This document shows, piece after piece, positions 24,361-60,500 of a stretch of DNA of 64,000 bases. How positions within the stretch are numbered: the stretch's first letter is position 1; the number at the start of each line of letters is the position of its first letter. The notes under the pieces are model-generated. The model searched no databases. It was not told where the DNA came from and saw nothing but the letters and a program-made list of their open reading frames with translations. Made by a program: the position numbers and the translations under genes. This stretch comes from Eubacteriales bacterium. Its GTDB lineage: Bacteria > Bacillota > Clostridia > Oscillospirales > CAG-272. The stretch is from contig JAZQXT010000080.1 of NCBI GenBank assembly GCA_045633005.1, positions 3,253 through 67,252 on the forward strand, read 5' to 3'.

Positions 24361-24534
24361 ATCATCAAGGCGAAGCCTTGTATATCATCAATTCTGAAGG
24401 AATTGTATATCATCAACACGGAGTGTTGTATATCATCATTGCGAAAGAAATACAGCCTACGGCTGATGATATACGCCTGCGGCGATGATATACACGCTAT
24501 CGCGTGATGATATGCCATTGCTTTCGCAATGGAT
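24361..24534. repeat. Repeat-hairpin ladder element A (GTATATCATC / GATGATATAC)
   Basis: Repeats at 24361 (partial), 24380, 24405, 24428; inverted copies at 24465, 24484, 24506; a mini-hairpin lies between every pair. Confidence 0.9.
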
Positions 24535-24565
24535 AAAAAATCGACAGGCATAGCCTGTCGATTTT
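24535..24565 (-). terminator. Terminator immediately 3' of tRNA-Leu
   Basis: aaaaaatcgacaggc-ata-gcctgtcgatttt. Confidence 0.75.
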
Positions 24566-24652
24566 TGGTGCCGGTGGCGGGGGTCGAACCCGCACGGTGT
24601 CGCCACCGCGGGATTTTGAGTCCCGTACGTCTGCCAGTTCCATCACACCGGC
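24566..24652 (-). tRNA. tRNA-Leu, anticodon CAA
   Basis: Minus strand GCCGGTG...TGGCAGAC...CGGGA CTCAAAA TCCCG, long variable arm, GGTTCGACCCC, CACCGGC-ACCA. Confidence 0.96.
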
Positions 24653-24983
24653 TTACCACTTATTGAATTATAGCACAAAGCTTTTGCAAAATCAACTGTT
24701 TTTTCATTTATTTTTAATTTTTAAGCAAAAAACTTTTCCACTCTTCTCTGCCTCGCCCCGAGACAAGCATATATCGCGCGTGCGTGCGCATATTATACTT
24801 AATAAGATTTTTCGGCTTTTGCGGCTGATTTGTATGAAAAAACGCATGATCAAGGCGAATTTTGGCGCAGCGCACCTTGCGGTTGCGCAAAAATTCAACT
24901 CAAAGTTGGTGGCAACGAGCGGGTGCGTTTGTTATAATACAATCACAGTAAAGCCGTAACGGCTATTTTTAAGGAGAATTTCT

Positions 24984-26816
24984 ATGTGTGGAATAATTGG
25001 TTATACAGGCAGCCGTAAGGCAAAGAAAATACTGCTTGACGGTCTTGCATCCCTTGAATACAGAGGCTACGACTCTGCGGGAATTGCGCTGTGCGACGCT
25101 GACGGTACGCTTCGCACCATCAAGTGCGGCGGCAGAGTAAGCGAGCTTGCAAGCAAAGCAAACGCCGTTGATTTTGATGCAAACCGCGGAATCGGTCACA
25201 CCCGTTGGGCAACCCACGGCGGCCCTACCGAGGCAAACGCGCATCCCCACGCCTCCAAGCGTTGCGTGATAGTACACAACGGTATTATCGACAACTGCCT
25301 TGAGCTTCGCGACGAGCTTTCGGCGCAGGGCTACACCTTCGTAAGCGACACCGACACCGAGGCTGCGGCGCACCTCATCGACCGCGAGTACGCGGCTCTT
25401 GGTGACCCCGCAAAGGCTCTTTACTCGGCTGCAAAATATCTTTGCGGTTCTTATGCTATCGCTGTTATTTTCCCCGAAAGAAGCGGCGAGATCTGGGCTA
25501 TCAGACGCGACAATCCCCTGATTGCCGCAACGTCCCCCGACGGTGCATTCCTTGCATCCGACATCCCCGCACTTCTCTCTCACACCCGTATGATCTACCG
25601 TCCCAAGGAAAACGAGGTAATTTGCATTACCGAGGCGGGCATCACGAAGCACAACACCGACGGAACGGTTGAAGCGATCGTTCCCGAGGAGACCGAGCTT
25701 GGCATTTCCGCCGCTGACAAGGATGGCTACGACCACTTTATGCTCAAGGAGATCCACGAACAGCCCGACGCTATTCGCCGTGCGGCTTCTCACCGCATAA
25801 ACTCCGATATGCTTCCCGATTTCTCGACCGACGGCATTTCCGAGGAATTCTGGCACTCCTTTGACAGCATTTCCATTATCGCCTGCGGCTCTGCTACACA
25901 CGCAGGTCTCGTTGGAAGATACGTTATCGAAAAGCTCGCGGGCGTTCCCGTTACTGTAAACACCGCGTCGGAATACCGCTACGATCCCCCCGCAATAGTA
26001 GGTAAGACTCTTGCTCTTGCTATTTCACAGTCGGGCGAGACCGCTGACACGCTTGCAGGACTTCGTCTTGCAAAGAGTCAGGGACACCCCACCGCCGCTA
26101 TTATAAACGCTGTGGGCTCTGCTATCGCGCGCGAGGCTGATTGCGTTATCTACACGGGCGCAGGTCCTGAGATCGCCGTTGCTACCACCAAGGGCTACGC
26201 TACTCAGGTAGCCGTGCTTTGTATGATGGCTATCAAGCTCGGCGTTGCACGCGGAAATCTTGCCGCTACCGAGGCAGCACGCCTTTGCCGCTCGCTTTCC
26301 CGCGATATTCCCGCATACGTCAGCGAGATCATCGGCAGACGTGACGAGATCCGCAAGCTCGCAGTTGCCGTCAAGGATGCAGACGACCTCTACTTTATCG
26401 GACGAGGTCCTGACTTCCCCGCCGCAACCGAATGCTCGCTCAAGCTCAAGGAGATCTCCTACGTTCACAGCGAGGCGTACGCCGCAGGTGAGCTGAAGCA
26501 CGGAACGCTCTCTCTCGTTGAGGAGGGTACTCCCGTAGTTGCGCTTGCAAACGATTCAAGATATTTCGATAAGATGGCAGGAAACATTCGCGAGGTTCGC
26601 GCAAGAGGCGGTTACGTTACGCTGATATGCACCGACGATTTCCCGCATCCCACCGAATACGGCGACAGCATTTTCGTTCTTCCCAAGACCGAGCCGCTGT
26701 TCTCTCCCCTCGTCAGCGTTGCCGCTTGTCAGATACTCTCTTACGAGATCGCTCTGCTTCGCGGTTGCGACGTTGACCACCCCCGCAATCTTGCAAAATC
26801 CGTAACTGTTGAATAA
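24984..26816 (+). CDS. glmS: Glutamine-fructose-6-phosphate transaminase
   Basis: MCGIIG, EYRGYDSAG, GHTRWATHG, SQSGETADT, ELKHG, PRNLAKSVTVE. Confidence 0.97.
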   Translation: MCGIIGYTGSRKAKKILLDGLASLEYRGYDSAGIALCDADGTLRTIKCGGRVSELASKANAVDFDANRGIGHTRWATHGGPTEANAHPHASKRCVIVHNGIIDNCLELRDELSAQGYTFVSDTDTEAAAHLIDREYAALGDPAKALYSAAKYLCGSYAIAVIFPERSGEIWAIRRDNPLIAATSPDGAFLASDIPALLSHTRMIYRPKENEVICITEAGITKHNTDGTVEAIVPEETELGISAADKDGYDHFMLKEIHEQPDAIRRAASHRINSDMLPDFSTDGISEEFWHSFDSISIIACGSATHAGLVGRYVIEKLAGVPVTVNTASEYRYDPPAIVGKTLALAISQSGETADTLAGLRLAKSQGHPTAAIINAVGSAIAREADCVIYTGAGPEIAVATTKGYATQVAVLCMMAIKLGVARGNLAATEAARLCRSLSRDIPAYVSEIIGRRDEIRKLAVAVKDADDLYFIGRGPDFPAATECSLKLKEISYVHSEAYAAGELKHGTLSLVEEGTPVVALANDSRYFDKMAGNIREVRARGGYVTLICTDDFPHPTEYGDSIFVLPKTEPLFSPLVSVAACQILSYEIALLRGCDVDHPRNLAKSVTVE

Positions 26817-26849
26817 AAAAATCGGGAGCGTTAGCTCCCGATTTTTTTA
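26814..26849. terminator. Bidirectional terminator
   Basis: aaaaaaatcgggagc-gtta-gctcccgattttttt. Confidence 0.78.
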
Positions 26850-28421
26850 TACTATCAAAAATCCGACGTTGGCAAGGCTTTCCGCGCTATCGGGCGCGTC
26901 TGCCTCGATGCCGTTGTCCGTAGCTACCCGCACGGGATCGACTCCGTAACGCTTGGAAACAGACCACAGGCTCTCCCCTGCACACGGGTAACAAACGGTT
27001 ATCCGCGCGGCATGGCGCGGACTTCCGTCGGGTGCGCGGCGCATACTGCCGAAACGCACCTCGGTGATCGCGTCAACGCTGCTCTTTGCCGCAACTGCCG
27101 CCGCAACGTAAAGCTCGGCGTCAACCGCAAGCTCCTCGCCGTCGATGCGTCCGCGGCACGCGCCAACGCTCACAACGGCGTGCGGGCAAAGCTCCGCATC
27201 GGTCGGAATCTCACCGATATCTGTGCTGTACTTGTACGGTATTTCAAGCTCGTGCGAGGCAAGCTCGCTTCCGTTGTCCGTGATAACGGTACAACGCACC
27301 TTGCCCGAAAGCTCCATACGGTTTCCGACGAAATCAAAACTCACGTCGGGGGAGGCTACGCCCCTTACGTCGCATATCTTCATTCCGCCGTCGAGCCTTA
27401 CGCCGTCCACGCCGATTGAACCGTTTATGCTGACGTTTCCGTTAATACAGCCTATCGGGCGGCGCGTTTGTATACGGCGCGAGGAGGTTTCGGATGCGTT
27501 TGAAAGAGCGTACACGTCGCGCAGATAAGTAAACGGGTATTTCGCCTGCGACTCGCCGCACAGCACCACCTCCGCCTCGCACACAAGGTGTCCGTCGGCG
27601 ACCGTTGCGCCGCACGAGGCAAGCTCACCCCAGCCGCACGCGCCCACAAGCTCCGCGCCGTCGCGCACGTCTTTCAGATACGCCGCCTCACCGCTTACGG
27701 GAATCTTTCGGGTAACGGCGTAAGGTCGCTCCCCCTCGCCCTCTCGGCAAAGCAGAATTTTAAGCTGTAATTCGCCGCTACACGCAACGCCCGTGCGCCT
27801 TGCCTCGGCGGACGTTATCATTACCTCGCCGCGACAGCAGACGACGCGAAGCTCTTCCGTTTCGCCCACCTCAAAGCTATCGCTCAGCGCAATAGCGTCG
27901 CTTCTGCCGCAAAGCGTTTGCATAGCGCTTGCAACTCCCTCAAGGCATCTTACGTCGCTTTCCAAAACGCTCTCGCCACGACACGCGCACTCAAACTCCG
28001 CGTTACATCCGACGGCGGCGCGGACTCGCACACGCGAGCGAATATTCACGCGGCGCGGCGCTATGACGCGCACGGCGGGCGTTTCCGCTACCGCGGTAGC
28101 GCGGCAGTGGCATTTTTCATTATCGGGTGCTTCGCCCTCAAGGCTCATCGCCGTTTCGTACTCTGCGGGTAGCTCGATGCACCACGCGCCGCCGTCCTCC
28201 CCGCCCTCGTATAGCAAGCGATACCGCATATTGCCGCCAAGCTCACAGCCCGACGGGCTTACGTAGCTTTCGGGCGCTGACACGGTTGCATCCACCGATA
28301 TCACGCGCTTTATCGGTGGCATATAATCGGGTAAGGTGTAGTCGTCCGACATTTCGCAAAGCACGTTTTTTTCCGCAAGCGGCACTTCAAGCTCAAAGCG
28401 TGCCGCTGTTATCTCATTCAT
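26847..28421 (-). CDS. SPOCS (DUF3794) repeat plus C-terminal LysM spore coat morphogenetic protein, SipL-like
   Basis: DYTLPDYMPPIKRV start, three ~150-aa beta-rich repeats, LysM-like GESLWSVSKRYGV. Confidence 0.75.
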   Translation of the reverse strand: MNEITAARFELEVPLAEKNVLCEMSDDYTLPDYMPPIKRVISVDATVSAPESYVSPSGCELGGNMRYRLLYEGGEDGGAWCIELPAEYETAMSLEGEAPDNEKCHCRATAVAETPAVRVIAPRRVNIRSRVRVRAAVGCNAEFECACRGESVLESDVRCLEGVASAMQTLCGRSDAIALSDSFEVGETEELRVVCCRGEVMITSAEARRTGVACSGELQLKILLCREGEGERPYAVTRKIPVSGEAAYLKDVRDGAELVGACGWGELASCGATVADGHLVCEAEVVLCGESQAKYPFTYLRDVYALSNASETSSRRIQTRRPIGCINGNVSINGSIGVDGVRLDGGMKICDVRGVASPDVSFDFVGNRMELSGKVRCTVITDNGSELASHELEIPYKYSTDIGEIPTDAELCPHAVVSVGACRGRIDGEELAVDAELYVAAAVAAKSSVDAITEVRFGSMRRAPDGSPRHAARITVCYPCAGESLWSVSKRYGVDPVRVATDNGIEADAPDSAESLANVGFLIV

Positions 28422-28674
28422 ATCTTTTCCTCCGTAGTGATATTTTACTGTATTTTATTCTAAAGCACGGGGATATATGCAAAAAAACCGCACATACGTC
28501 CTACCAACTAAAATAGGACGGAGATTTTTAATTCTCCGTCCCGTTTTCTTGATAAGTACAACACCGTGGATACAAATGCAAATATTAAATTTGTCGATAT
28601 ATCGACAATCCCACGAGGGATTGATATCGATGCGCACCTGCACGATGGCAGGTGCGCTAAGGCGGTTTTTTTGA

Positions 28675-29223
28675 TCAGCTTTCGAGCTGTTTGGCGAGAA
28701 AGGCGGCGGCGGTCTGCACAAGCTTCGCTTCAACGCTTCCGTTTTCGGTGCGTATCGCGCCGTCGGCGCAAAGCGCCGCAACGCATCCGAGAACGTCGCC
28801 CTCCGATATGATTGGCATCGCGCAGGTGATATAATGCGAGCCGCCGTCAACTATCGGGGAGAACTTCGCCTCGCCCGCTCTGTAAACGTAGATCCCACGG
28901 CTCTCGATGACCGCTTCAAGCTCGGCGGAAATATGCTTGTCGGCGTACTCCTTGCGAGGCACGCCCGCGGATGCTATAACCGCGTCGCGGTCACAGATGA
29001 CCACGGACAGCTCACCCGTTTTGTGGAGAGCCTCGGCGTACTGCGCCGCGAAGGAGTTAAGCTCGCCTATGGGCGAGTACTTTTTGAAAATGACCTCGCC
29101 CTCGCGGTCGGTGTAAATTTCAAGTGGGTCGCCCTCGCGGATGCGCATTGTACGGCGAATCTCTTTGGGTATCACCACACGACCGAGATCGTCAATGCGG
29201 CGTACGATTCCTGTTGCTTTCAT
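28675..29223 (-). CDS. spoVT: Stage V sporulation protein T
   Basis: MKATGIVRRIDDLGRVVIPKEIRRT AbrB domain followed by a GAF-like domain. Confidence 0.95.
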   Translation of the reverse strand: MKATGIVRRIDDLGRVVIPKEIRRTMRIREGDPLEIYTDREGEVIFKKYSPIGELNSFAAQYAEALHKTGELSVVICDRDAVIASAGVPRKEYADKHISAELEAVIESRGIYVYRAGEAKFSPIVDGGSHYITCAMPIISEGDVLGCVAALCADGAIRTENGSVEAKLVQTAAAFLAKQLES

Positions 29224-29260
29224 TTATATAAATCTCCTTGTTTTCACAGATTTGTAATGT

Positions 29261-29289
29261 TAGTATCTGCAAAACAAGGGGATTTATAC
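29261..29289 (-). promoter_or_regulatory. Forespore sigma (SigG/SigF)-like promoter of spoVT
   Basis: Minus strand GTATA-17 nt-GATACTA; spoVT is SigG-dependent in Bacillus subtilis. Confidence 0.5.
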
Positions 29290-29410
29290 TGCACAAATTG
29301 ACATTTAATCGGATATATAATAAAACGAAACCGTGGCATTAAATATCTGCTTGCAAGCTCAACCGCAAGCCGTTTTAAAAACAATATCGCGATAAATCAA
29401 CAAAACAAAG

Positions 29411-30732: not shown

Positions 30733-30773
30733 TTTACCGCACCTCCCATCATACGACGCTGTAGAAATGCTTT

Positions 30774-35225: not shown

Positions 35226-36416
35226 ATGAAAGAAAGATTTATTCGCTCGGCGGCGGTTATTGCAGTAGCTTGCCTTTGCATCTTCTCCCTCGCATCCTGC
35301 AGTCTTACGGACATTTTCGGCAAGGACTACCCCGACACTACGCTTGCAACGCAAGCCTCCGACACAACAACAGCCGCACCCGAGACCACGGTAGCAAGAC
35401 CCGAAAAGCCGAGCCTTATTGAGCTTGATATGGAAAAATATCTGAGCCTTGATTACAAGGGACTTTCACTCAGCGTAAAGAAGCTCCCTAAAGTCGTAAC
35501 GGATGATGACGTGAATGCCGAGATCGAGGGATTGATCAAACAACTCGGCAAATACACTCTCATTACCGACCGCGCTCCCGTAGAGGGCGACACGCTTGAG
35601 ATAAGCTACGTTGGCACGATAAACGGCGAGGAATTTCAGGGCGGAAAATCCGACAAGGCAACCATACTTCTTGACAAAAAGAACAGCGGCTACATCGAAG
35701 GCTTTGCCGACGCGCTTTACGGCGCGGCGTGCGGAGACACGGTAACGGCAGAGCTTACTTTCCCCACGGATTATTACGAGCATCTCGCAGGCAAGGCGGT
35801 CACGTTTAAGATAACCATCAAGGGAATCTGCAACTTGGAGCTGACCGACGATATCGCCAAGGAAATAAGCAAGGGCGACATAACCACCGCCGCCGATTAC
35901 AGAACGCACGTAAAGGAATATCTGGAGCTTGAGATAAAGCACGCCACCATCGACGAGGTTTACGAGGAGATGTGGGATCTTTTGATAGAAAGAGCCACCG
36001 TCACCGAGCTTTACGCACCGCTTTACGACTTCTACCACGCTGATTTTATAAATTCCATAGTCGAGTATGCCAATTACTACGGCATCAGCTACAACGAATG
36101 CCTGAAAACGCTTGGATTTGATGAAACCAAGATAGACGAAATGGCGAAGGAAAGCGCGATCGGGGATATGATAATCTACTACATCGCCGCCAAGGAAGGA
36201 ATCACCGTTACCGACGAGGATTGCAAGGAATACCTTGAGGACTACGTTGAATACTACAAGGAACAAGGTATGAACTACACCGTCGAGTCGCTTGAAAAGG
36301 AGCTTGAGGACTACTACGGCGAGGGCTACGTTTACACGCAGCTTTTGTCGGGAGACGTCATCTTTGCCGTTTTTGACAGCGCAACGCTTGTGGAAAAACC
36401 TGCGGAAACCGAATAA
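35226..36416 (+). CDS. Trigger-factor-like lipoprotein (FKBP PPIase plus TF C-terminal domain)
   Basis: Lipobox LASC, Thr-rich linker, DYKGL, EFQGG, YIEGF, TFPTDY, LAGKAVTFKITI. Confidence 0.8.
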   Translation: MKERFIRSAAVIAVACLCIFSLASCSLTDIFGKDYPDTTLATQASDTTTAAPETTVARPEKPSLIELDMEKYLSLDYKGLSLSVKKLPKVVTDDDVNAEIEGLIKQLGKYTLITDRAPVEGDTLEISYVGTINGEEFQGGKSDKATILLDKKNSGYIEGFADALYGAACGDTVTAELTFPTDYYEHLAGKAVTFKITIKGICNLELTDDIAKEISKGDITTAADYRTHVKEYLELEIKHATIDEVYEEMWDLLIERATVTELYAPLYDFYHADFINSIVEYANYYGISYNECLKTLGFDETKIDEMAKESAIGDMIIYYIAAKEGITVTDEDCKEYLEDYVEYYKEQGMNYTVESLEKELEDYYGEGYVYTQLLSGDVIFAVFDSATLVEKPAETE

Positions 36417-36457
36417 AAGAAAACGCTTGGCGCATCGCGCCAAGCGTTTTCTTTTAT
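36414..36457. terminator. Bidirectional terminator
   Basis: aaaagaaaacgcttggcgc-atc-gcgccaagcgttttctttt. Confidence 0.8.
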
Positions 36458-36463
36458 CTTTAC

Positions 36464-37495
36464 TTATGCAAGCTCTGCAAAGTACTTGATGGTGCGAACC
36501 ATCTGGCTGGTGTAGGAGTTCTCGTTGTCGTACCAAGAAACTACCTGTACCTGATAGGTGTCGTCATCGATCTTAGCTACCATGGTCTGAGTAGCATCGA
36601 AGAGGGAGCCGTATCTCATACCGATAACGTCGGAGGATACGATATCCTCGGTATTGTAACCGAAGGAAGCGGAGGAAGCAGCCTTCATAGCAGCGTTGAT
36701 GCCCTCCTTGGTAACGTCAGCGCCCTTAACTACTGCAACGAGGATAGTGGTAGAACCGGTGCAGGTAGGAACTCTCTGAGCAGAGCCGATGAGCTTGCCG
36801 TTGAGCTCGGGGATAACGAGACCGATTGCCTTAGCAGCGCCGGTGGAGTTAGGAACGATGTTCTGTGCGCCTGCGCGAGCACGTCTGAGGTCGCCCTTTC
36901 TGTGAGGACCGTCAAGGATCATTTGGTCACCGGTGTAAGCGTGTACGGTGGTCATGATACCGCTCTGGATAGGAGCGTAATCGTTGAGAGCCTTAGCCAT
37001 GGGAGCGAGGCAGTTGGTGGTGCAGGATGCAGCGGAAATGATCTGGTCATCAGCGGTAAGGGTGTTCTCGTTTACAGAGTAAACGATGGTCTTAAGATCG
37101 TTGCCTGCGGGAGCAGAGATAACGACCTTCTTTGCGCCTGCGTTGATGTGAGCCATGGACTTCTCCTTAGAGGTGTAGAAGCCGGTGCACTCGAGAACAA
37201 CGTCAACGTCAAGAGCGCCCCAAGGGCAGTTAGCAGCGTCCTTCTCAGCGTAGATCTTGATCTCCTTGCCATCAACAATGATGGAGTCCTCGGTAGCCTC
37301 AACGGTGTGAGTGTTCTCACCGATAGCGCCGCAGTAAGCACCCTGAGCGGTGTCGTACTTCAGAAGGTGAGCAAGCATCTTGGGGCTGGTGAGGTCGTTG
37401 ATAGCAACAACTTCGTAACCCTCTGCGCCAAACATCTGGCGGAATGCGAGACGGCCGATACGGCCAAAACCGTTAATAGCAACTTTTACTGACAT
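36464..37495 (-). CDS. gap: Type I glyceraldehyde-3-phosphate dehydrogenase
   Basis: [26 protein letters not shown]. Confidence 0.97.
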
Positions 37496-46982: not shown

Positions 46983-47068
46983 TTTTTCGACTTTTTTCAA
47001 AAAAAGTATTGACAGACGCATTTTTTTGTAGTAAAATCTATAACAACAAATTGAATAGCGGTTATAAA

Positions 47069-47320
47069 GGCTATGACGAAGACGGTCAGGCGATGCTTGT
47101 GCACAGAGAGCCGATGGTTGGTGTAAATCGGTAACGGCGCGTTAAGTACCCATCACTTCCGAGCCGAAGATTCGAAGCTTGAGAGTCTTCCGTTTGCGCT
47201 ACGTCATTGCGCAGGGCTTGTTTGAGTCCGTTAAGTGGCATCGAAAGATGCAATTTGAGTGGTACCGCGGGAAAATGCTTTTTATCCCGTCTCAAAGAAA
47301 TTCTTTGAGACGGTTTTTTT
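47069..47320 (+). ncRNA. T-box leader with Ile (ATC) specifier
   Basis: Stem I GGCTATGA...AGAGA...GGTG...CCC-ATC-A-CTTCCGAGCC; T-box AATTTGAGTGGTACCGCG at 47252; terminator CCGTCTCAAAGAA-A-TTCTTTGAGACGG plus T tract. Confidence 0.88.
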
Positions 47321-47340: not shown

Positions 47341-49620
47341 ATGATGAACAAAGAGATCCGCGACGTTGCTTCACGCGTAAGAATGTTGCGCGAGATCGCA
47401 GGAATGAGCGAGGCTGAAGCCGCCGCAAACACCGAGGTTTCCATTGAGGAATACCGTGCGCTTGAAAGAGGCGAGCGCGACTTCGCTTTCACGTTTATTT
47501 ATAAAGCCGCCGCTACCTTCGGCGTTGAGATGAGGGATATCCTTGAGGGAACGAGCCCCAATCTTTCGCTCTACACCGTCACTCGCCACGGCGAGGGCGT
47601 GCCGATCGCGCGTAACACGGGTTTTGCATACAACAACCTTGCCCCCTCGTTCAAGAACAAGATCGCCGAGCCCTTCCGCGTTCTTATTCCCTGCGGTGAC
47701 GACGACGTTCCCTCCTACAACCGCCACAAGGGTCAGGAGATAGACATCGTTATCAGCGGTACTCTTGAAATTCGTATAAACGAGCGCATAGAGCTTCTCG
47801 GCCCAGGTGACACCATTTACTACAACAGCTCCGCTCCCCACGCGCTTCGCGCTCTCGGCGGTGATTGCGAGATATACGCAATCGTACTCAAATCCACCGA
47901 GGACGAGGACGAGGCTGAATTCGTACACGGAAATCCCCGTCTTGCAAACGCCGCCGCAAAGGGTGAGCGCACGGTGGCTGACGATTTCATTACCACCACG
48001 CTTGACGAAAAGGGCGTGCTTTCCTCCATCAGCTTTACTAACGAGGACAAGTTCAATTTCGCATACGACGTAGTGGACAAGATAGCCGAAAAGACACCCG
48101 ACAAGCGCGCTATGCTTTGGGTTTCCTCCGACAAGCGTGAGCATACGTTCACCTTTGGCGATATGGCTAAATACTCCAATATGACGGCAAACTACTTCCT
48201 CTCCCTCGGCATTAAGAAGGGCGACACGGTAATGCTCGTTCTTAAGCGTCACTATCAGTTCTGGTTTGCAATGCTTGCGCTCCACAAGATAGGCGCGGTG
48301 GCAATTCCCGCTACCAACCAGCTTGTTGAGCACGATTTCTCCTATCGCTACAAGGCGGCGGGTGTCAAGGCTATCGTCTGCACCGCAGACGGCGAGACGC
48401 ACCTGCACGCAGAGCGCGCCGCCGCTGAATTCCCCGACATCGTAAAGATACTCGTCGGTGCAAAGCGCGACGGCTGGTACGACTACAACAGCGAGATGAT
48501 GCTGTGCTCCGATTCTTTCCCGAGAACCGAGGACACTCCCTGCGGCGACGACACTATGCTTATGCTCTTTACGTCGGGAACTACGGGATACCCCCGCGTT
48601 GCGGCGCACTCCTACAAGTACGCGCTCGGTCACTACATAACCGCGCGTTATTGGCACAACGTACGTCCTAACGGACTTCACTTCACCATTTCCGACACGG
48701 GCTGGGGCAAGGCTCTTTGGGGTAAGCTCTACGGTCAGTGGCTTTGCGAAGCGGCTGTGTTCACTTATGATTTTGACCGCTTCACGCCCGAAGATATTCT
48801 CCCCATGTTTGCTAAATACGGCATAACCACCTTCTGCGCTCCCCCGACGATGTACCGTTTCTTCATTCGTGAGGATCTGTCAAAGTACGACCTTTCCTCC
48901 ATCGAATACGCTACGACTGCGGGCGAGGCTCTCAACCCTGAGGTCTACAACCGCTTCTACGCAGAGACGGGACTTAAGATAATGGAGGGCTTCGGTCAGA
49001 CCGAGACCACGCTCAGCATAGGAAACCTCGTGGGAAGCGAGCCGAAGATCGGCTCGATGGGTCGCCCTTCTCCCCTTTACAACGTCAAGCTTCTTGATGC
49101 CGACGGCAACGAGTGCGACGCGGGCGAGACGGGAGAGATCTGTATCGACCTTTCGGCAGGAAATCCCTGCGGACTTTTCAAGGGATACTATCTCGACGAG
49201 GAGCACACCTCGGAGGTAATTTACGACGGATATTATCACACGGGCGACACCGCAACCGTTGACGAGGACGGATATTTCTGGTACGTCGGACGTATCGACG
49301 ACGTTATCAAGTCCTCGGGCTACCGCATAGGTCCGTTTGAGATAGAAAGCGTTATTATGGAGCTTCCTTACGTGCTTGAATGCGCTATCACTCCCGTTCC
49401 CGACGAGATACGCGGTCAGATAGTTAAGGCGACCGTGGTTCTTACCAAGGGCACGAAGGCAAGTGACACGCTGAAAAAGGAGATCCAGACCTATGTAAAG
49501 ACGCGCACCGCTCCCTACAAATACCCCCGTATCGTGGAATTTGTAGACGAGCTTCCCAAGACCATAAGCGGCAAGGTTCGCCGCGTTGCCATCCGCAAAA
49601 AGGACAGCGGAGAGGCGTAA
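47341..49620 (+). CDS. XRE-HTH + cupin + AMP-forming acyl-CoA synthetase fusion
   Basis: N-terminal HTH and cupin (HKGQE; GDTIYYNS...H); FTSGTTGYP, EGFGQTE, YHTGD, GYRIGPFEIE, PKTISGK. Confidence 0.9.
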   Translation: MMNKEIRDVASRVRMLREIAGMSEAEAAANTEVSIEEYRALERGERDFAFTFIYKAAATFGVEMRDILEGTSPNLSLYTVTRHGEGVPIARNTGFAYNNLAPSFKNKIAEPFRVLIPCGDDDVPSYNRHKGQEIDIVISGTLEIRINERIELLGPGDTIYYNSSAPHALRALGGDCEIYAIVLKSTEDEDEAEFVHGNPRLANAAAKGERTVADDFITTTLDEKGVLSSISFTNEDKFNFAYDVVDKIAEKTPDKRAMLWVSSDKREHTFTFGDMAKYSNMTANYFLSLGIKKGDTVMLVLKRHYQFWFAMLALHKIGAVAIPATNQLVEHDFSYRYKAAGVKAIVCTADGETHLHAERAAAEFPDIVKILVGAKRDGWYDYNSEMMLCSDSFPRTEDTPCGDDTMLMLFTSGTTGYPRVAAHSYKYALGHYITARYWHNVRPNGLHFTISDTGWGKALWGKLYGQWLCEAAVFTYDFDRFTPEDILPMFAKYGITTFCAPPTMYRFFIREDLSKYDLSSIEYATTAGEALNPEVYNRFYAETGLKIMEGFGQTETTLSIGNLVGSEPKIGSMGRPSPLYNVKLLDADGNECDAGETGEICIDLSAGNPCGLFKGYYLDEEHTSEVIYDGYYHTGDTATVDEDGYFWYVGRIDDVIKSSGYRIGPFEIESVIMELPYVLECAITPVPDEIRGQIVKATVVLTKGTKASDTLKKEIQTYVKTRTAPYKYPRIVEFVDELPKTISGKVRRVAIRKKDSGEA

Positions 49621-49627: not shown

Positions 49628-49666
49628 GTGTGTGAGTCAAATGCTAAAAGCATTTGACTCACACAC
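49628..49666. repeat. Perfect 18-bp stem-loop abutting element B
   Basis: GTGTGTGAGTCAAATGCT-AAA-AGCATTTGACTCACACAC; no T tract on the + strand. Confidence 0.8.
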
Positions 49667-49667
49667 A

Positions 49668-49832
49668 ATGAATTGCCCTGCGGGCGTGAATTGGCTTACG
49701 CCATGAATTGCACCTGCGGTGCATGAATTGCCTTCGGCATTGTGAGAAAGGGCAATTCAAATCATGAAATCGTAAGATTTCAAATCATGAAGCCGTAAGG
49801 CTTCAATTCATGACGGCTTGCCGTCAATTCAT
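49668..49832. repeat. Repeat-hairpin ladder element B (ATGAATT / AATTCAT)
   Basis: Repeats at 49668, 49686, 49703, 49723; inverted copies at 49759, 49782, 49805, 49826; a hairpin lies between each pair. Confidence 0.9.
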
Positions 49833-49904
49833 TATACCAAAGCAACAAAAAACCAAGATCAATCATTTGATTTGACCTTGGTTTTTTGTTATGGTTGTAC
49901 ATTA

Positions 49905-55810: not shown

Positions 55811-56823
55811 AATTTCTCGCATACTCCTTTCACAGTTATATAAGCATCACGGCCCTTGCTGAACGCAAACTTGAAAAGTCTTGCAAGCTGCTTCATTGCA
55901 AAGGGAACGAGGCGCATGGCGAAATTGTAAACAAGAACGCCTATGAGCAGCACAGAGCCGCTGACGATAACGCCAAGACCGATCTCAAAAAGTCCTATCG
56001 GCGTTTGTCCCGCTACGAGCTGTATGACTCCGTAAACTATTCCGATCAGCGAAATACAGCATCCCGCCGCAACGAACACGATAAGCCCCGCGATGCTGAA
56101 GATCAGCATAAGAGCAAGTGCTACCCAGAAAAAGATGTAAAGCCCAACCGTAATAAGTGCAAGCGCGAGGACGAAGGGCGCGGCAATACAAGCGAGAACG
56201 ATAAAGAGCGTTTTGTTGTTGCGAAGCTTTTGGAGATCCTCCTCGCTAAGCTCTCTGCGCTGTTCCTCTCTCTGTTCCTTTTGCTCCTCAACGTACTCCT
56301 TGCGATTATGCTTGTGCATAAGCTTTTTATCCCGTTCGTTCCTTGCGGGACGGTAGGGGCGCACGTCGTCAATGCTATCGTCGGGGGCGTCGTTCTGAAC
56401 GTCCTCGGGCGCCATTATTCTGACAAAATGAGGATCAAGGTCCTCGTCTCCCGCTTGTGCGACAGACGACGGTTGCGGCTCAGACTCAACTTCGGCTTCG
56501 GGGTCGCCGACTGCTTGTTCTTCCTTGGGTTCTTCACCGATGTACTTAAGTGACGCGTTGATCTCGTCCTCCACCGAGGGCGCTTCTTCAACGGAGATAG
56601 CAGACTCTACGGTTTCCGTTTCTTCAGACATAATAACGTCGGACACGCCGAGCGCCTTAACTATGCCGTCAGCCATTTCGGCAGGATCCGCCTCTACGTC
56701 TTCCATTCCCGTCTGCTTGATGTAGTTGCCGATGCGTTCAAGCTGCGCCTTGATCGAATCCTCGTCAAGACCGCGAGCGCATAGCTGCTCCTCGAGCTGT
56801 TTCAAAAATTCCTTTTTTTCCAT
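55807..56823 (-). CDS. DUF1700/HAAS-like membrane protein with a long acidic insert
   Basis: MEKKEFLKQLEEQL N-terminus, acidic region, 3 C-terminal TM segments; adjacent to a DUF4097-like gene. Confidence 0.6.
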   Translation of the reverse strand: MEKKEFLKQLEEQLCARGLDEDSIKAQLERIGNYIKQTGMEDVEADPAEMADGIVKALGVSDVIMSEETETVESAISVEEAPSVEDEINASLKYIGEEPKEEQAVGDPEAEVESEPQPSSVAQAGDEDLDPHFVRIMAPEDVQNDAPDDSIDDVRPYRPARNERDKKLMHKHNRKEYVEEQKEQREEQRRELSEEDLQKLRNNKTLFIVLACIAAPFVLALALITVGLYIFFWVALALMLIFSIAGLIVFVAAGCCISLIGIVYGVIQLVAGQTPIGLFEIGLGVIVSGSVLLIGVLVYNFAMRLVPFAMKQLARLFKFAFSKGRDAYITVKGVCEKL

Positions 56824-57008
56824 TTTGACTCCAAAATGATTTTTTATTAATTAAATCGTATCGAGATTTTTTCAAAAAAGCTATACAAATCGATGCGATT
56901 TATGCTATAATATATACATTACTTGGATTTTTTGCTCCAAAAGGCGAAAAATCACAAAAATAATATAATTCACACTATATTATAACAGATTTAAAGAGAG
57001 AATGCAAG

Positions 57009-57680
57009 ATGAGAATGAGAAAAAAAAAGCATTCGGGCGAAAGAATCGAAGCCTGCGCCCGTTTTCTTATCAAAGAACCCCTTTCCTGCTTTGAAAATTT
57101 GAGCGAGCCCTTTGGCGTGAGCCGCCCCACTCTGCTTGAGATCGGCTGTGGCAAGGGAGATTTTGCGCGTCAGCTTAGTGCAAAATTCACCGACCACAAC
57201 ATAATCGCCATCGAAAGAGTGCCCGACGTTGCCATGACCGCGCTCGAAAAGGCGGCGGCAAGCGAGGACGAGCGCCCCGATAACCTGCGCTTTATTATCG
57301 GTCACGCGCAATATCTTTCCGATTGGTTTGCGCCGAACAGCTTTGAGCGCATCTACGTAAACTTCTGCGACCCTTGGCCCAAGACGGGCTATCACAAGCG
57401 CAGACTCACCGCGCCCTCTTTCCTTCGCGTTTACCGCTCGTTGCTCGTCAGCGGCGGCGAGCTTCACTTCAAGACGGACAACCAGCCGCTCTTTGATTGG
57501 TCGCTTGAGCAATTTGAAGCCGAGGGACTTGAGATAGTTTTCGTAACGCGCGACCTTCATTCAAGTGAAAAAGCATCAGAAAACCTTATAACCGAGTACG
57601 AGCATCATTTCTCTTCTATGGGAATGAATATTTACTCGGCTCACGTCCGCTTCCCAAAAAAAGACGGCGAGAATGAATAA
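57009..57680 (+). CDS. trmB: tRNA (guanine-N7)-methyltransferase
   Basis: MRMRKK, LEIGCGKG, NFCDPWPK, FKTDN, TEYE. Confidence 0.95.
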   Translation: MRMRKKKHSGERIEACARFLIKEPLSCFENLSEPFGVSRPTLLEIGCGKGDFARQLSAKFTDHNIIAIERVPDVAMTALEKAAASEDERPDNLRFIIGHAQYLSDWFAPNSFERIYVNFCDPWPKTGYHKRRLTAPSFLRVYRSLLVSGGELHFKTDNQPLFDWSLEQFEAEGLEIVFVTRDLHSSEKASENLITEYEHHFSSMGMNIYSAHVRFPKKDGENE

Positions 57681-58593
57681 TACCGTAAGAATCGAGCCTG
57701 ACGGCATTCTTGTTATCAACAAGCCGTCGGGTATGACCTCGCACGACGTTGTAAACCGCGTACGCCGTCTTTTCGGCACGCGTGCCGTTGGACACACGGG
57801 CACGCTTGACCCGATGGCTACGGGCGTTCTCGTGCTTCTGCTTGGCAGAGCCGCCAAGGCGTGCGAGTATGCCGTGGCGGGCAAAAAACGCTACACCGCG
57901 CGGCTCAGGCTCGGAATTGAAACGGACACCGAGGACACGACGGGCGAAATAATACGCTCCCGCGAGGTCAACGTAAGCCGCGAGGAATTTGATGCGGTGC
58001 TTCCCTCCTTCATCGGTGATATTATGCAGATACCGCCGATGTACAGCGCACTTAAGCGCGATGGCAAGAAGCTGTGCGACCTTGCACGCGAGGGCAAGGT
58101 CATCGAGCGCGAGGCGCGCCCGATAACCGTTTTTTCGATCGATGCAGAGCAGATAGACGGCACGGACTACACGCTTTACGTAGCTTGCTCGGCGGGCACT
58201 TATATACGCACGCTCTGTGCGGACATCGGCGCGTCTCTCGGATGCGGCGGTGCCATGGCGGCACTTGAAAGGACCGAGGCGTGCGGATATTCGCTTGCCG
58301 ACGCACATACGCTTGATAAGCTTAACGAAATGACGCTTGACGAAAGACTATCGCTCCTTTTGCCGACGGAAACGCTGTTTTCGTCGCTCCCTGCGATAAG
58401 GCTTGAAGCGTTTTATGAAAAGCTGTTCCGCTCGGGCTGTGAGATATATTTCAAAAAGCTGAGGCTATCTGCACCCGAAATAGGAGCGCGGCTTCGCGTA
58501 TGCGATAGCAAGGGCGATTTTTTCGCACTTGGCGAGGTCAGAGACTATCCCGACGGAATTGCAATAAAATCGCTAAAGCTATTTAAATTATAA
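57673..58593 (+). CDS. truB: tRNA pseudouridine(55) synthase
   Basis: KPSGMTSHD, GHTGTLDP, PPMYSALK, GTYIRTL. Confidence 0.96.
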   Translation: MNNTVRIEPDGILVINKPSGMTSHDVVNRVRRLFGTRAVGHTGTLDPMATGVLVLLLGRAAKACEYAVAGKKRYTARLRLGIETDTEDTTGEIIRSREVNVSREEFDAVLPSFIGDIMQIPPMYSALKRDGKKLCDLAREGKVIEREARPITVFSIDAEQIDGTDYTLYVACSAGTYIRTLCADIGASLGCGGAMAALERTEACGYSLADAHTLDKLNEMTLDERLSLLLPTETLFSSLPAIRLEAFYEKLFRSGCEIYFKKLRLSAPEIGARLRVCDSKGDFFALGEVRDYPDGIAIKSLKLFKL

Positions 58594-58712
58594 CGAAAAG
58601 CGATAAGAGTTTTTATATATTTTTGATCTACCACCCAATTTCGACGCGTTTTGCGCCGCAGGGGTGGTAGAATTTTTTTATAAGGAATAAAAAAAGGAAG
58701 GAATATCGTAAT

Positions 58713-59075
58713 ATGATCAAAAATACATGCGATATATTGTGCGAGCTATGCGCCGATTGCCTCGTTATTACGGTCAGCGGAGAGATAGACCATCACGGCG
58801 CGGTATATATGCGGCAAAAAGCAGACGAGGCGATAAGAAGTGCGTCCCCCCAGCGCCTCGTGCTTGATATGTCCGCCGTCAGCTTTATGGACAGCTCGGG
58901 GCTCGGATTTATAATGGGGCGTTTTGCGCTTATGCGTGAGCTTGGCGGAGCAACGCTCGTAAGAGACCCTGCGCCGTGCGTTGAGCGCGTGCTAAAGCTT
59001 ACGGGCTTTGACAAGAAGGTAAAAATTATAAAAAATCACAAAACGGAGAAGGAATATGAACGTCAAAGAATATAA
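58713..59075 (+). CDS. spoIIAA: Anti-sigma F factor antagonist
   Basis: GEIDHH, FMDSSGLG STAS motif; operon context. Confidence 0.92.
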   Translation: MIKNTCDILCELCADCLVITVSGEIDHHGAVYMRQKADEAIRSASPQRLVLDMSAVSFMDSSGLGFIMGRFALMRELGGATLVRDPAPCVERVLKLTGFDKKVKIIKNHKTEKEYERQRI

Positions 59076-59553
59076 AAAAAGAAGCGGCAGACCGCCGCTT
59101 GCAACCATAACGAACGAACTAAAGCTATCTTTCCCCTCCCTTTCGGCCAACGAGTCCTTTGCCCGTGCCGCCGTAGCCGCATTTATTTCACAGCTTGACC
59201 CGACGCCTACGGAGCTTGCGGACATCAAATGCGTGCTTTCAGAGGCGGTAACGAACTGCATCGTCCACGCCTACAGGGACTGCATCGGCGACGTTAAAAT
59301 AACCGTGCGACTACGTGCAGACAGAAGCGTCAGCATCGAGGTCAAGGACAACGGCGTGGGAATTGAAAACGTCGAGGAGGCGCGGCAACCGCTGTTCACC
59401 ACGGGTGCCGCCGAGGAGCGAAGCGGAATGGGATTTACCGTAATGGAGAGCTTTTGCGATAAAGTAAAAATACGCTCAAAGCTCTGCCGCGGTACTACGG
59501 TGATCATGACGAAAAGACTTACCTCCAAACCCAAAGCAAGCTCTCATACATAA
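59056..59553 (+). CDS. spoIIAB: Anti-sigma F factor
   Basis: NESFAR, SEAVTNCIVHAY, DNGVGI, ERSGMGFTVME. Confidence 0.95.
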   Translation: MNVKEYKKRSGRPPLATITNELKLSFPSLSANESFARAAVAAFISQLDPTPTELADIKCVLSEAVTNCIVHAYRDCIGDVKITVRLRADRSVSIEVKDNGVGIENVEEARQPLFTTGAAEERSGMGFTVMESFCDKVKIRSKLCRGTTVIMTKRLTSKPKASSHT

Positions 59554-59570
59554 CTGTTTCGGAGGAGCTA

Positions 59571-60317
59571 ATGAATCTATATTCGACCGACAGCAACCGC
59601 GCTCTGCTTGAGACGGCGCAACGCGGCTCGGCGCAAGAGGCGGATGCGGCGACGGAAAGGCTGATAATCGCCAACGCGGGACTTGTGCGGAGCATCGCGT
59701 TGAAATTCTGCGGTCGCGGCTGTGAATTCGAGGATCTCGTTCAGATCGGCACTATCGGTATGATAAAGGCTATTCGCTCGTTTGACCTTGAGCGCGGAAC
59801 GGCGTTTTCGACCTATGCCGTCCCGCTTATTCTCGGCGAGATAAGGCGGCATCTGCGCGACGACGGACCTATAAAGGTCGGGCGTGCGGTAAAGCGGCTC
59901 GGTGCGGAGCTTATGCGCGAGCAGACGCGCATCATCAGCGAAACGGGCGTAGAGCCGCAGATATCGGAGCTTGCCGCCGCTTGCGGTGTCAGCGTAGAGG
60001 AAGCGGCTTGCGCCCTTGACGCGATAAGCCCCGTAGCCTCACTTTCCGAGGGATCGGACAGCGAGAGTGGCTTTGAGCTTTTCGACCGTATCCCCGATGA
60101 GTCGGGTATGCTTGACATCGAGCGTGCCTGCGATAGAATTGCGATTTCGCAAGCAATAGGCAGGCTTCCCGCGCTATGGCGGCAGATAGTGGTTTTGCGG
60201 TACTTCAAGAACCTAACGCAACAAAAGACCGCAGACGCGCTCGGTCTTACGCAGGTAAAGATATCGCGCGAAGAAAAAAAGATAGTGGAATATTTAAGAG
60301 AAGAGCTCAGCGGTTAG
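59571..60317 (+). CDS. sigF: Sporulation sigma factor F
   Basis: EDLVQIGTIG, FSTYAVP, RDDGPIKV, TQVKISREEK; third gene of the spoIIA operon. Confidence 0.9.
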   Translation: MNLYSTDSNRALLETAQRGSAQEADAATERLIIANAGLVRSIALKFCGRGCEFEDLVQIGTIGMIKAIRSFDLERGTAFSTYAVPLILGEIRRHLRDDGPIKVGRAVKRLGAELMREQTRIISETGVEPQISELAAACGVSVEEAACALDAISPVASLSEGSDSESGFELFDRIPDESGMLDIERACDRIAISQAIGRLPALWRQIVVLRYFKNLTQQKTADALGLTQVKISREEKKIVEYLREELSG

Positions 60318-60342
60318 CGTTGTGCCCTTAAGGGCACAACGC

Positions 60343-60500
60343 AGTTATGATTGCCCTGACGGGCAAGTTATGAGTTATAATATGCTTCGCATAGTTATGA
60401 TTGGCTTCGCCAAGTTATAGATTAGATGGGCAATCATATCATAACGTTTGCGAAGCAAACTCATAACGGTGAGCGCAAGCGAGCCTTATCACTTATAACT
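60343..60500. repeat. Repeat-hairpin ladder element C (GTTATGA / TCATAAC), preceded by the palindrome GCGTTGTGCCCTTAAGGGCACAACGC at 60317-60342
   Basis: Repeats at 60344, 60367, 60374, 60394, 60414; inverted copies at 60439, 60461, 60486, 60493; interspersed hairpins. Confidence 0.85.

Follow-up and report, generated by a model that had tools for sequence, protein, structure and literature searches.

Word-and-hairpin repeat arrays of gut and rumen Clostridia and their link to four-helix-bundle protein genes

What are the three non-coding ladders, built of short words alternating with small hairpins, that lie between genes in one 64,000-nucleotide stretch of Clostridia DNA (the window, meaning the whole of the DNA analysed), and what is conserved in them when their words differ? 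These elements, A, B and C, carry no gene and belong to a modular intergenic repeat superfamily of uncultured gut and rumen Clostridia. In each unit, an AT-rich word of ~7 nt precedes a GC-rich mini-palindrome whose pairing is perfect and whose sequence is free. The units form polar arrays of about 3–6, often two of them opposed, and on either side of the arrays stand long-hairpin and terminator modules that can be interchanged. We further infer that the words serve as sites for a four-helix-bundle protein on a folded strand, and we give this whole reading, superfamily and mechanism together, a probability of roughly 0.55. The interpretation offered by the first-pass annotation is partly supported.

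The three elements and their sites

Tandem Repeats Finder returned A, B and C as the only arrays of the word-hairpin kind within the window. All three fold as single strands far better than shuffled sequence (z = -6.8 for A, -5.9 for B and -7.9 for C, with 0/200 shuffles folding as well) and, as first annotated, lie between convergent units and abut a perfect palindrome each; the arrays described as 4–5 word copies followed by 3–4 were also found, with numbers at the low end of that range. Element A sits between an HTH gene (+) and tRNA-Leu (-), B between an AMP-binding gene (+) and an HtrA-like protease (-), and C between a sigma-70 factor (+) and a 164-aa ORF (-). Their parts are as follows.

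24359-24532: element A, two opposed arms with hairpins
24359..24436 (+): arm 1 of A, a partial word and then TATATCAT three times (24381-88, 24406-13, 24429-36)
24366-80, 24389-24405, 24414-28: hairpins alternating with these words (loops GAA, TGAAG, GGA)
24437..24452: centre of A, between the two arms
24453..24532 (+): arm 2 of A, ATGATAT(A/G) three times (24466, 24485, 24507), a hairpin with each, in the order ATGATATA, ATGATATA, ATGATATG
24453-65, 24474-84, 24493-24506, 24515-32: hairpins of arm 2 of A (loops TAC, TGC, TATC, TTTC)
24536-24566: perfect palindrome beside A, 14-nt arms, A-run and T-run
24566..24652 (-): tRNA-Leu gene, followed by its terminator and then the ladder A module
49628..49901: whole polymorphic block of site B, 274 bp
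49628..49666: long hairpin module of B, 18-nt perfect arms, terminator-like on the - strand
49667-49833: element B, four (A/G/C)TGAAT(T) words and four hairpins, then four AWTCA words and three hairpins
49667..49739 (+): arm 1 of B, words AATGAATT, GTGAAT, TGAAT, TGAAT, alternating with hairpins of loops TGC, TTAC, TGC, TTC
49740..49764: centre of B
49765..49833 (+): arm 2 of B, loops GTAA, GTAA, CTTG alternating with AATCA, ATTCA, ATTCATT
49844..49890: right module of B, 19-nt inverted repeat
60317..60342: long palindrome module of C, GCGTTGTGCCC[TTAA]GGGCACAACGC, overlapping the stop codon of the sigma-factor gene
60318..60586: polymorphic block of site C
60343-60500: element C, GTTATGA three times and GTTATAG, then TCATAAC twice and two degenerate copies
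60343..60413 (+): arm 1 of C, GTTATGA three times alternating with hairpins 60351-66, 60381-93 (TTC) and 60401-13 (TTC)
60414..60500 (+): centre and arm 2 of C, TCATAAC at 60439-45 and 60461-67, hairpin 60446-60 (GAA)
60541..60573: right terminator-like inverted repeat of C, 16-nt arms

In element A, the words of arm 1 are separated by hairpins of the type CAAGGC[GAA]GCCTTG, and the strand carrying GNA loops is + in arm 1 and - in arm 2. The palindrome at 24536-24566 forms a bidirectional terminator-like hairpin between tRNA-Leu and the ladder; it recurs in a near-identical copy of A behind a different tRNA-Leu on contig C1, besides which this genome holds about eight diverged copies. In three relatives, the same tRNA-Leu is followed by three other terminator-plus-ladder modules, with a different ladder class at the same place, and two of the three include a four-helix-bundle gene where this genome has the ladder alone.

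Element B has four copies in this genome. Its right module looks like a bidirectional terminator because the inverted repeat has an A-run and a T-run, and it is common to copies G000:C30 and G024:C4, while other B-class copies keep the long hairpin module with compensatory changes. Across 13 aligned B copies, loops are ~6 times more variable per column than stems or words. In relative G014 the element is absent, the flanks being 94-95% identical with their matches 29 nt apart, and a plain A-run/hairpin/T-run terminator occupies the gap between the genes.

Element C has decayed furthest, its arm 2 ending in the degenerate units TTATCAC and TTATAAC; no further copies were found in this genome, and relative G007 has four matches. 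Its palindrome module type also ends TCGATAT-class elements and one B-class copy, and the type of its right inverted repeat recurs on G024:C67 and in the allele that G014 and G024 have at this site. Element C is absent from G007, where the two gene ends form a hairpin, GAGCTCAGC-GGCTAA-GCTGAGCTC, and in G014 and G024 a longer insert (316 nt between flank matches) places a ladder of another class, TCGATAT/ATATCGA, in the loop of this gene-end hairpin.

Since close relatives have empty sites (B and C) or another ladder class (A and C), the elements have been gained, lost and swapped, so that the orthologous-site comparison called for at the outset yielded both presence/absence and replacement. 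Flank modules are shuffled among ladder classes, and neither a target-site duplication nor a fixed insertion rule was found at these sites. We suggest that the elements may spread when they insert into or beside hairpins of the terminator type and when shared modules recombine, without any recognised transposase. Among 47 elements with both flanks known, 22 lie between convergent, 23 between tandem and 2 between divergent genes; elements also sit behind tRNA genes, and a preference for gene 3' ends, as in REP elements, is supported.

A REPIN-like class had been proposed, moved in trans by a Y1 HUH transposase of the RAYT/IS200 type, which would recognise word plus hairpin, and the dispersed, multi-copy, non-autonomous part of this proposal holds. 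The elements are extragenic, palindromic, in inverted pairs and biased to 3' ends, and a conserved short word beside a hairpin recalls the REP tetranucleotide GTAG. The enzyme itself, however, has no match (PF01797) in this 84% complete genome and is present in 9/38 genomes of the genus, where five strong matches are IS200-like and have end hairpins of their own, and four weak matches are RAYT-like, again with separate and different REP hairpins; 0/9 of these genes are flanked by ladders, one merely lying beside an array. In addition, hairpin sequence is free here but conserved within a REP family, and we regard such mobilisation as very improbable.

Words, hairpins and the strand that folds

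The 1.87-Mb genome contains ~94 filtered arrays with 389 hairpins, each unit being an AT-rich word plus a GC-rich perfect mini-hairpin. On the strand with GNA loops the words are ATTTCAC, ACTTCAC, ATATCAC, ATATCAT, ATATCGA, ATATCGC, CATCAT, AATTCAT and ATGGAAT, all of which vary a single theme, ATnTCAY, as read where the loops are GNA/GNRA; the words of A, B and C do differ, as first reported, but they are not unrelated. Loop type tracks word orientation, with ATTTCAC-type words going with GAA, GCA, GTA, GCAA or GTAA loops and the reverse-complement words with TTC, TGC, TAC, TTGC or TTAC loops. Stems are perfect in 194/225 inter-word segments, and stem changes among B-family copies are compensatory. 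Stem length ranges from 4 to 18 bp and, therefore, the words become evenly spaced only once the hairpins have folded. There are also arrays of mixed type, in which plain heptamers and hairpin units stand together.

The closing pair is C-G in 364/389 hairpins, GNA triloops (n=203; GAA 126, GCA 39, GTA 28, GGA 10) stand against about 67 GNRA tetraloops, and tandem G·A/A·G occupies 41 cells, besides four G·T and three A·C among 1329 Watson-Crick pairs. Mini-hairpins of the type d(GCGNAGC) are reported to be extraordinarily stable in a closing-pair-dependent manner (PMC13037366, PMC3201870). This hairpin chemistry (C-G-closed GNA triloops, tandem G·A, few wobbles) suggests folded single-stranded DNA more than RNA, although templated DNA repair could keep the palindromes perfect with no selection for folding.

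Rfam already lists one of the word classes, GUGAAAU, as the orphan motif Gut-1 (RF01706); the family is only partly catalogued, but to call it undescribed is not supported. This genome has 38 matches over the cut-off, and the Gut-1 seed alignment consists of hairpins set apart by GUGAAAU. Elements A (24443-24518, +, 29.7 bits) and B (49666-49734, +, 27.0 bits) give sub-threshold matches, below the 50-bit gathering score, and C gives no match to RF01706.

The arrays could instead act as RNA, either as small RNAs of the Gut-1 type or as structured modules in 3' UTRs, where they would stabilise the upstream transcript or terminate it; in a variant, they would titrate an RNA-binding protein, possibly the same four-helix-bundle protein. 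Rfam and Weinberg et al. 2010 (PMC2864571) regard Gut-1 as a likely ncRNA; the elements lie at gene 3' ends beside terminators, in expected 3' UTRs; as single strands they fold into very stable structures; and GNRA loops and tandem G·A pairs occur in RNA too. Relative to the nearest upstream gene's sense strand, 41 arrays have the Gut-1 (UNC-loop) orientation and 20 the GNA orientation, a count resting on crude gene calls. This same bias, however, makes the signature strand (GNA/GNRA loops, tandem G·A), which is opposite to the Gut-1 orientation, antisense to incoming transcription in about two thirds of cases. Variable stems are nearly without G·U pairs (4 vs 1329), triloops outnumber tetraloops about 3:1, the terminator comes before the ladder behind tRNAs, and several cassettes have the ladder ahead of the gene's own promoter. 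RNA-library contigs cover spots inside C (depth 9-54 at 60387) and B, but these are contigs without strand information and with possible DNA carry-over. We consider an RNA role possible, although rather unlikely.

The two-arm rod is not the conserved feature. In that proposal, each word of one arm pairs with a word of the other arm on the same strand, and four-way junctions in series connect the short helices that result. The minimum-free-energy folds of A, B and C do pair the arms; among B-family copies, pairing per helix reaches 85-97% over 22 word-word pairs, and position 42-119 forms a standard pair of two types (UA 2, AU 1) in 3/13 copies. The same position is unpaired in the other 10/13, mismatches reach ~7% of cells in rod pairs vs ~1% in mini-hairpins, several two-armed elements have non-complementary words (for instance GTGAAAT with CATCAT or ATATCGC), and complementarity comes free from inverted duplication. 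Moreover, 63/78 elements are single-armed under a strict detector, and the arms of many Gut-1-type elements look like two separate arrays because a central terminator module divides them; 31 of the 78 lie at contig ends, and because MAG contigs break at these repeats, some contig joins may be wrong. As a selected structure the rod is not supported, and we consider it improbable.

Arrays and four-helix-bundle genes

A hint that four-helix-bundle proteins might be involved was borne out: 5/5 PF05635 genes in this genome adjoin arrays, and genus-wide a word array lies upstream of 30/30 fetched PF05635 loci. The proteins are TIGR02436 and match PDB 2RLD (5 chains), and the array directly upstream of their genes is either a ladder or plain tandem heptamers. 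Since the same kind of array heads these cassettes, each ladder of the window is the cassettes' non-coding head standing alone. Sister proteins share words, as expected from co-inheritance alone when gene and upstream array are linked. Across 101 genomes of the order, Gut-1 and PF05635 occur together in 39, Gut-1 alone in 5, PF05635 alone in 11 and neither in 46, a table in which kin are not independent and the cassettes' own arrays can score as Gut-1. One genome, G118 (75% complete), has 29 Gut-1 matches and no PF05635 match, and among the five PF05635 genes of our 84% complete assembly there is no cognate for the largest word class (GTGAAAT) or for the words of B or C.

The arrays might also be double-stranded operators through which the protein regulates its own promoter, the solitary copies being decayed, functionless cassettes. 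At several loci a -35-like hexamer, accompanied by an extended -10, directly adjoins the last word, and at site A relatives carry the gene, as described above. Against this, duplex word spacing is irregular (starts 18-25 bp apart), the strong strand bias of the loops is unexplained by duplex binding, and solitary arrays (~94) far outnumber genes (5) and include fresh, near-identical copies; we consider the operator reading improbable.

In the reading that we prefer, specificity would reside in the words, as the sites, and the hairpins would be structural spacers whose sequence does not matter. On an unpaired strand, the hairpins would fold out and bring the words side by side, as in the plain heptamer repeat, and the folded array would present a row of about 4-5 identical sites to its cognate oligomeric four-helix-bundle protein, which has a pentameric homologue. 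The folding strand would be the one with GNA/GNRA loops, more likely as DNA than as RNA.

Comparison with known systems

Gut-1 (RF01706) shares with this family free-sequence hairpins split by a constant heptamer, with the same polarity, and arm 2 of A and arm 1 of B match it weakly on the same relative strand; its model describes one arm and one word class, whereas the words of A, B and C are different ones. Gut-1 is entered as an sRNA whose function is unknown, "in human gut only", and the portions of its description seen (Weinberg et al. 2010, PMC2864571) do not mention a two-arm layout, flank modules, site polymorphism or a four-helix-bundle gene link.

The REP, BIME and REPIN elements of proteobacteria resemble the family: they too are short, palindromic and extragenic, occur as arrays and as inverted pairs, form mosaics with linker motifs, lie at 3' ends or between convergent genes, exist in many copies and are polymorphic between strains. 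They are mobilised by RAYT Y1 transposases, and the family here is their reverse in that conservation lies in the linker word and the hairpins vary freely in sequence, besides having direct units within an arm, no linked RAYT and a four-helix-bundle protein as partner. In CRISPR a constant short repeat alternates with variable inserts, pneumococcal BOX is modular (boxA-boxB(n)-boxC) and cyanobacterial STRR are tandem heptamers in intergenic DNA; compared with these, the words here are only 5-10 nt and, in contrast to CRISPR, the "spacers" are self-complementary palindromes of 11-40 nt, not foreign sequence, with no adjacent cas genes.

Diversity-generating retroelements (DGR) have a hairpin beside the variable region, a strand-specific cis element with a G..A-type loop, and their accessory protein Avd is a pentameric four-helix bundle of the same type as the partner protein here, whereas the loci inspected here showed no reverse transcriptase or template/variable repeat pair. 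PF05635 is said to resemble Avd (PMC10053308). The protein family is shared with the 23S rRNA IVS and other TIGR02436/PF05635 ("23S_rRNA_IVP", Avd-like) cassettes, which encode it in a small gene with flanking inverted repeats, inserted at unrelated loci, for example 18 such genes inside cas loci (PMC3936711); the literature passages seen do not mention a word-plus-hairpin ladder ahead of the gene. Unlike these cassettes, A, B and C lack a gene, and no rRNA is involved here. IVSs sit at the tips of rRNA helices and, in the same manner, the insert at site C lies in a hairpin loop.

Three ladders of the window and their relatives in the genome

The three non-coding ladders that the first-pass annotation had seen in the window, in which short AT-rich words alternate with mini-hairpins, are present where it had placed them, and after re-mapping they are composed as follows.

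Element A, 24359-24532: TATATCAT in three copies plus a partial copy, with a 5-6-bp hairpin after each word, then ATGATAT(A/G) in three copies with hairpins.
Element B, 49667-49833: four TGAAT-type words with four hairpins, then four AWTCA words with three hairpins.
Element C, 60343-60500: GTTATGA in three copies and TCATAAC in two, plus decayed units.

All three are flanked by convergent units and have a perfect palindrome adjoining them, as had also been described, and each has a strongly negative single-strand folding score (z = -6.8 for A, -5.9 for B and -7.9 for C) that 0 of 200 shuffles equalled. Tandem Repeats Finder reported arrays of the ladder kind in the window at A, B and C and nowhere else, and a candidate from a loose scan (36413-36503) proved to be an ordinary terminator. 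In the neighborhood of B, whose position is at the 3' end of the HTH-cupin-AMP-binding gene 47341-49620, a T-box leader match (47064-47297, plus strand) was found upstream of that gene, its 89.6 bits being just below the Rfam gathering score of 93; near A, the tRNA-Leu gene is preceded by a sequence resembling a promoter, its -10 being extended (24667-24695, minus strand; TTGATT-17-TATAAT, 10/12).

The source genome, G000, in which the window is C80:3253-67252, is a 1.87-Mb MAG in 99 contigs, 84% complete; judged by EF-G, it is related to uncultured Eubacteriales/Clostridia MAGs from the guts of ruminants and other animals. Scanning it for words and reverse words gave 30 regions of the ladder kind, at least two of which (hits of the first k-mer scan, C8:10532 and C42:38774) were rejected as coding-sequence repeats. 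A search that ignored the words and looked for successive mini-hairpins whose spacers resemble one another gave 135 runs, and the 94 arrays with 389 hairpins that remained after filtering bear out the earlier suggestion of a dispersed, multi-copy, non-autonomous class. A has one copy at 97.7% identity behind a different tRNA-Leu and about eight diverged ones, B has four copies, and C is single in this genome, with four matches of the same layout in the relative G007. Among 47 elements, 22 have convergent, 23 tandem and 2 divergent flanking genes, and the flank modules, comprising four long-hairpin and four terminator types, combine freely with the ladder classes. The whole is a modular, polar, multi-class repeat family, turning over at gene 3' ends.

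Other repeats were observed alongside. Plain tandem heptamers, TGCAGAG and TGCAAAG in up to 8 copies, occur at C1:9863-10150 and C97:1863-1991, together with hybrid arrays in which heptamers are mixed with word-plus-hairpin units and which look like intermediates between the array types. In the type I elements behind tRNAs (contigs C1, C8, C21, C64 and C80, and C48 of another genome, G001), TATCC and then a hairpin follow directly after the tRNA terminator, and TATCC may mark the actual left end of the module. A second dispersed family consists of GCTCCCTC[..]GAGGGAGC hairpins followed by ...ACTGA(A/G)GGA...

The ladder family is partly catalogued already. The Gut-1 motif (RF01706), whose seed alignment has hairpins with GUGAAAU between them, was classed as likely ncRNA of the "human gut only" in its description (Weinberg et al. 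2010, PMC2864571). In the source genome, RF01706 matches 89 places at E<=1, 38 of them above the 50-bit gathering score, and the best are all GTGAAAT arrays. The window elements are built in the same way, with consecutive hairpins of variable sequence and a constant word between them, but their words are other than GUGAAAU: the second arm of A (24443-24518, plus strand; 29.7 bits) and the first arm of B (49666-49734, plus strand; 27.0 bits) stay below the gathering score, and C remains unmatched at E<=1. The question of whether the class was already described, raised with the first-pass annotation, is answered in part by Rfam. Gut-1 and REP-like repeats are known kinds; for the multi-word family with its two architectures, its turnover and its protein partner we found no published account, nor one of word-plus-hairpin ladders or of their link to PF05635, in the literature searched, which did not extend to the PDF supplements of Weinberg et al. 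2010 or to subscription papers.

Polarity, hairpin chemistry and the strand that folds

The words ATTTCAC, ATATCAT, CATCAT, ATATCGA, ATATCGC, ATGGAAT and AATTCAT go together with GAA, GCA, GTA, GCAA or GTAA loops, and the reverse-complement words with TTC, TGC, TAC, TTGC or TTAC loops. Given that word orientation tracks loop type, the "different words" belong to a single theme, of which they are variants; the claim that the elements differ in their words holds, while the notion that these words are unrelated does not. On the strand with GNA/GNRA loops, the GNA strand, the 389 hairpins have mostly GAA (126), GCAA (41), GCA (39), GTA (28), AAA (20) and GTAA (17) loops, and 364 of them are closed by a C-G pair. 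Stems are perfect in 194 of 225 inter-word segments, and a symmetric-pairing count over these segments gave 1329 Watson-Crick pairs, with G·T in 4 cells and A·C in 3, besides 41 tandem G·A/A·G cells in the hairpin type GTTT-GA-GC-GAA-GC-GA-AAAC, whose flanking pairs covary. Two other wobble counts were set aside: a first one with 20 C·A cells, all of which came from the conserved GTGAAAT/GTTAAGG flanks, and an MFE-based one (205 G·U on the UNC strand vs. 24) that was caused by conserved word ends and is uninformative. Among 13 copies of B, loops vary about six times as much per column as stems or words.

C-G-closed GNA triloops are described as "extraordinarily stable" DNA mini-hairpins in two abstracts (PMC13037366, PMC3201870). 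These stable triloops, together with the near absence of wobble pairs, point to the GNA strand as the one that folds, and to DNA rather than RNA, which falls short of proof. Two proxies for the replication strand of single arms disagree (GC skew 18:27, gene-strand bias 23:11; mutual r = 0.23). That the arrays function as RNA is a live alternative: RNA-library contigs overlie parts of C and B, these being Logan contigs from four metatranscriptomes of one study, devoid of strand, ends or usable depth and with their uncovered parts left uninterpreted, and on the sense strand of the upstream gene the Gut-1 orientation outnumbers the GNA orientation by 41 to 20 on crude gene calls. However, the structural signatures, that is, the loops and the tandem G·A, are on the strand opposite to the Gut-1 orientation.

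A, B and C can all form the rod proposed with the first-pass annotation, in which the two arms would pair word to word into short helices joined by serial four-way junctions, but the family as a whole does not conserve it: most elements are single-armed (63 of 78 by a strict detector). Moreover, several two-armed elements have non-complementary words, and the arms of Gut-1-type elements are often parted by a terminator module. In the B alignment, the mini-hairpin helices are 98-100% paired and the word-word helices 85-97%, with one rod pair unpaired in 10 of the 13 copies. As for the selection on structure that had been suggested, two pairs do change on both sides in the B family, which is about the shuffle expectation, and informative changes are few because the copies are 93% identical.

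Gain, loss and exchange at orthologous sites

Comparison with relatives shows empty or swapped sites at B and C and module exchange at A. At site B, the flanks are 94-95% identical in the relative G014, where their matches are 29 nt apart with a plain terminator between them vs. 274 bp (49628-49901) in the source genome; another genome, G024, has a 1255-nt insert there. At site C, the gene ends of G007 pair into GAGCTCAGC-GGCTAA-GCTGAGCTC, a hairpin that holds no insert, and G014 and G024 have a longer insert in the loop of such a hairpin, with 316 nt between the flank matches; this insert holds the same long palindrome as in the source genome, a related right module and a TCGATAT/ATATCGA ladder with unrelated hairpins, where the source genome has its GTTATGA ladder. 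At site A, what follows the same tRNA-Leu differs among the relatives: in G024 it is another terminator together with a GTGAAAT ladder and a four-helix-bundle gene, in G014 a third terminator and ladder but no such gene, and in G007 a pair of cassettes with a four-helix-bundle gene and a cargo gene.

An additional 1-kb block and inversion breakpoints, seen when the source genome is compared with G024 and G007, likewise coincide with ladder copies. The 1-kb non-coding block (C39:4940-5997), absent in G024, is full of the second repeat type and lies between two direct GTGAAAT arrays. Segment 11822-15972 of contig C21 is inverted relative to G024:C40 and G007:C9, and its breakpoint, at about 11790-11821, falls at a repeated ladder-type element. 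Synteny of contigs C39 and C21 with G014 gave no clean empty sites, because the G014 contigs end at ladders. No target-site duplication was found. Integrase-type elements that target tRNAs duplicate the tRNA 3' end, a direct copy of which then lies beyond the insert; 0 of 11 tRNA-adjacent cases in the source genome has such a repeat of at least 7 nt beside the ladder, and the lone 8-mer lies 523 nt off, within a gene.

A four-helix-bundle partner and comparison with known systems

The ladder family is associated with a gene for a four-helix-bundle protein (PF05635/TIGR02436, Avd-like and of the 23S-IVS type), a large family with solved structures whose function is, to our knowledge, known only in DGRs. 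All five such genes of the source genome adjoin arrays, usually in the order tRNA, terminator, ladder, gene; four-helix-bundle proteins were among the candidate partners named with the first-pass annotation. PF05635 has no match in the window, and A, B and C stand without the gene, which is present at the orthologous A site in G024 and G007. Over the genus, the family is found in 26 of 38 genomes. In each of the 30 loci fetched, as in the source genome's own, the gene is immediately preceded by a word array, which is either a word-plus-hairpin ladder or a plain tandem run of heptamers in 4-5 copies (GTGGACA, TGCAGAG, GGGCAGA, TATTCAT and others); sister proteins have words in common, and the A-class word and a B-like ATTCAT word are both among those upstream. 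Across 101 genomes of the order, apparently the same ones in both searches judging by their handles, Gut-1, which is patchy with many copies and present in 44, occurs together with PF05635 in 39 and alone in 5, PF05635 alone in 11 and neither in 46, with kin that are non-independent and cassettes that bear their own arrays. In the source genome, a cassette at C62:1-1000, made of a four-helix-bundle gene and a 72-aa two-TM-like ORF, is bounded at both ends by a direct repeat of the terminator and first words.

The mobilization by a Y1/RAYT transposase that had been proposed finds no such footing, given that PF01797 has 0 matches in the source genome and that, in the 9 of 38 genus genomes with matches, none is flanked by ladders, these genes being IS200-like or RAYT-like and each having its own, different hairpins. 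One IS200-like gene with its own end hairpins (G014:C155:1058-1414) lies directly beside an ATATCAC/ATATCGC array but is not flanked by ladders.

The PF05635 proteins match PDB 2RLD, with five chains, and a title in the reference list of PMC10053308 presents one member as built of five four-helix bundles; the family is also reported within cas loci (PMC3936711). We suggest that the words are specific sites and the hairpins structural spacers, which fold out of a single strand and so bring the words side by side, as in the arrays of plain heptamers; an oligomeric four-helix-bundle protein would then read the aligned words, and spread would proceed by insertion at hairpins and recombination of modules. 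With a probability of roughly one in four, the ladders would be docking arrays for pentameric Avd-like proteins on folded ssDNA, about five words being aligned by looped-out hairpins, and protein plus array would form a transposase-less mobile cassette homing to hairpin loops and terminators (tRNA ends and convergent gene ends here, and elsewhere rRNA helix tips and cas loci). If so, three orphans would acquire a function together: Gut-1, TIGR02436 and the 23S IVS proteins. Gut-1, an orphan Rfam motif since 2010, is here a single word class within a far larger hairpin-array family with interchangeable words. It and the four-helix-bundle gene, equally unexplained, thereby come down to a single testable question, whether the protein binds the word array of its own locus and on which nucleic acid. 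The arrays are a visible share of intergenic DNA in many uncultured gut Clostridia, where they mark the places at which cassettes turn over and inversions occur, and break MAG assemblies (31 of 78 elements of the source genome are at contig ends); Rfam-based annotation overlooks most word classes, and repeat-aware assembly and annotation would help such genomes.

Like REP/REPIN sequences, the elements of the source genome are extragenic and multi-copy and favor 3' ends and convergent spaces. In contrast to the conserved imperfect palindrome and 5' tetranucleotide of REP, they have free, mostly perfect palindromes (194/225) and a conserved linker word, and a cognate Y1 HUH (RAYT) gene flanked by ladders is absent in the source genome and the 38 genus genomes. 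From CRISPR they differ in that its repeats of about 23-50 nt, for the most part accompanied by cas genes, are separated by unique, non-palindromic spacers, whereas the ladders have words of 5-10 nt and palindromic spacers.
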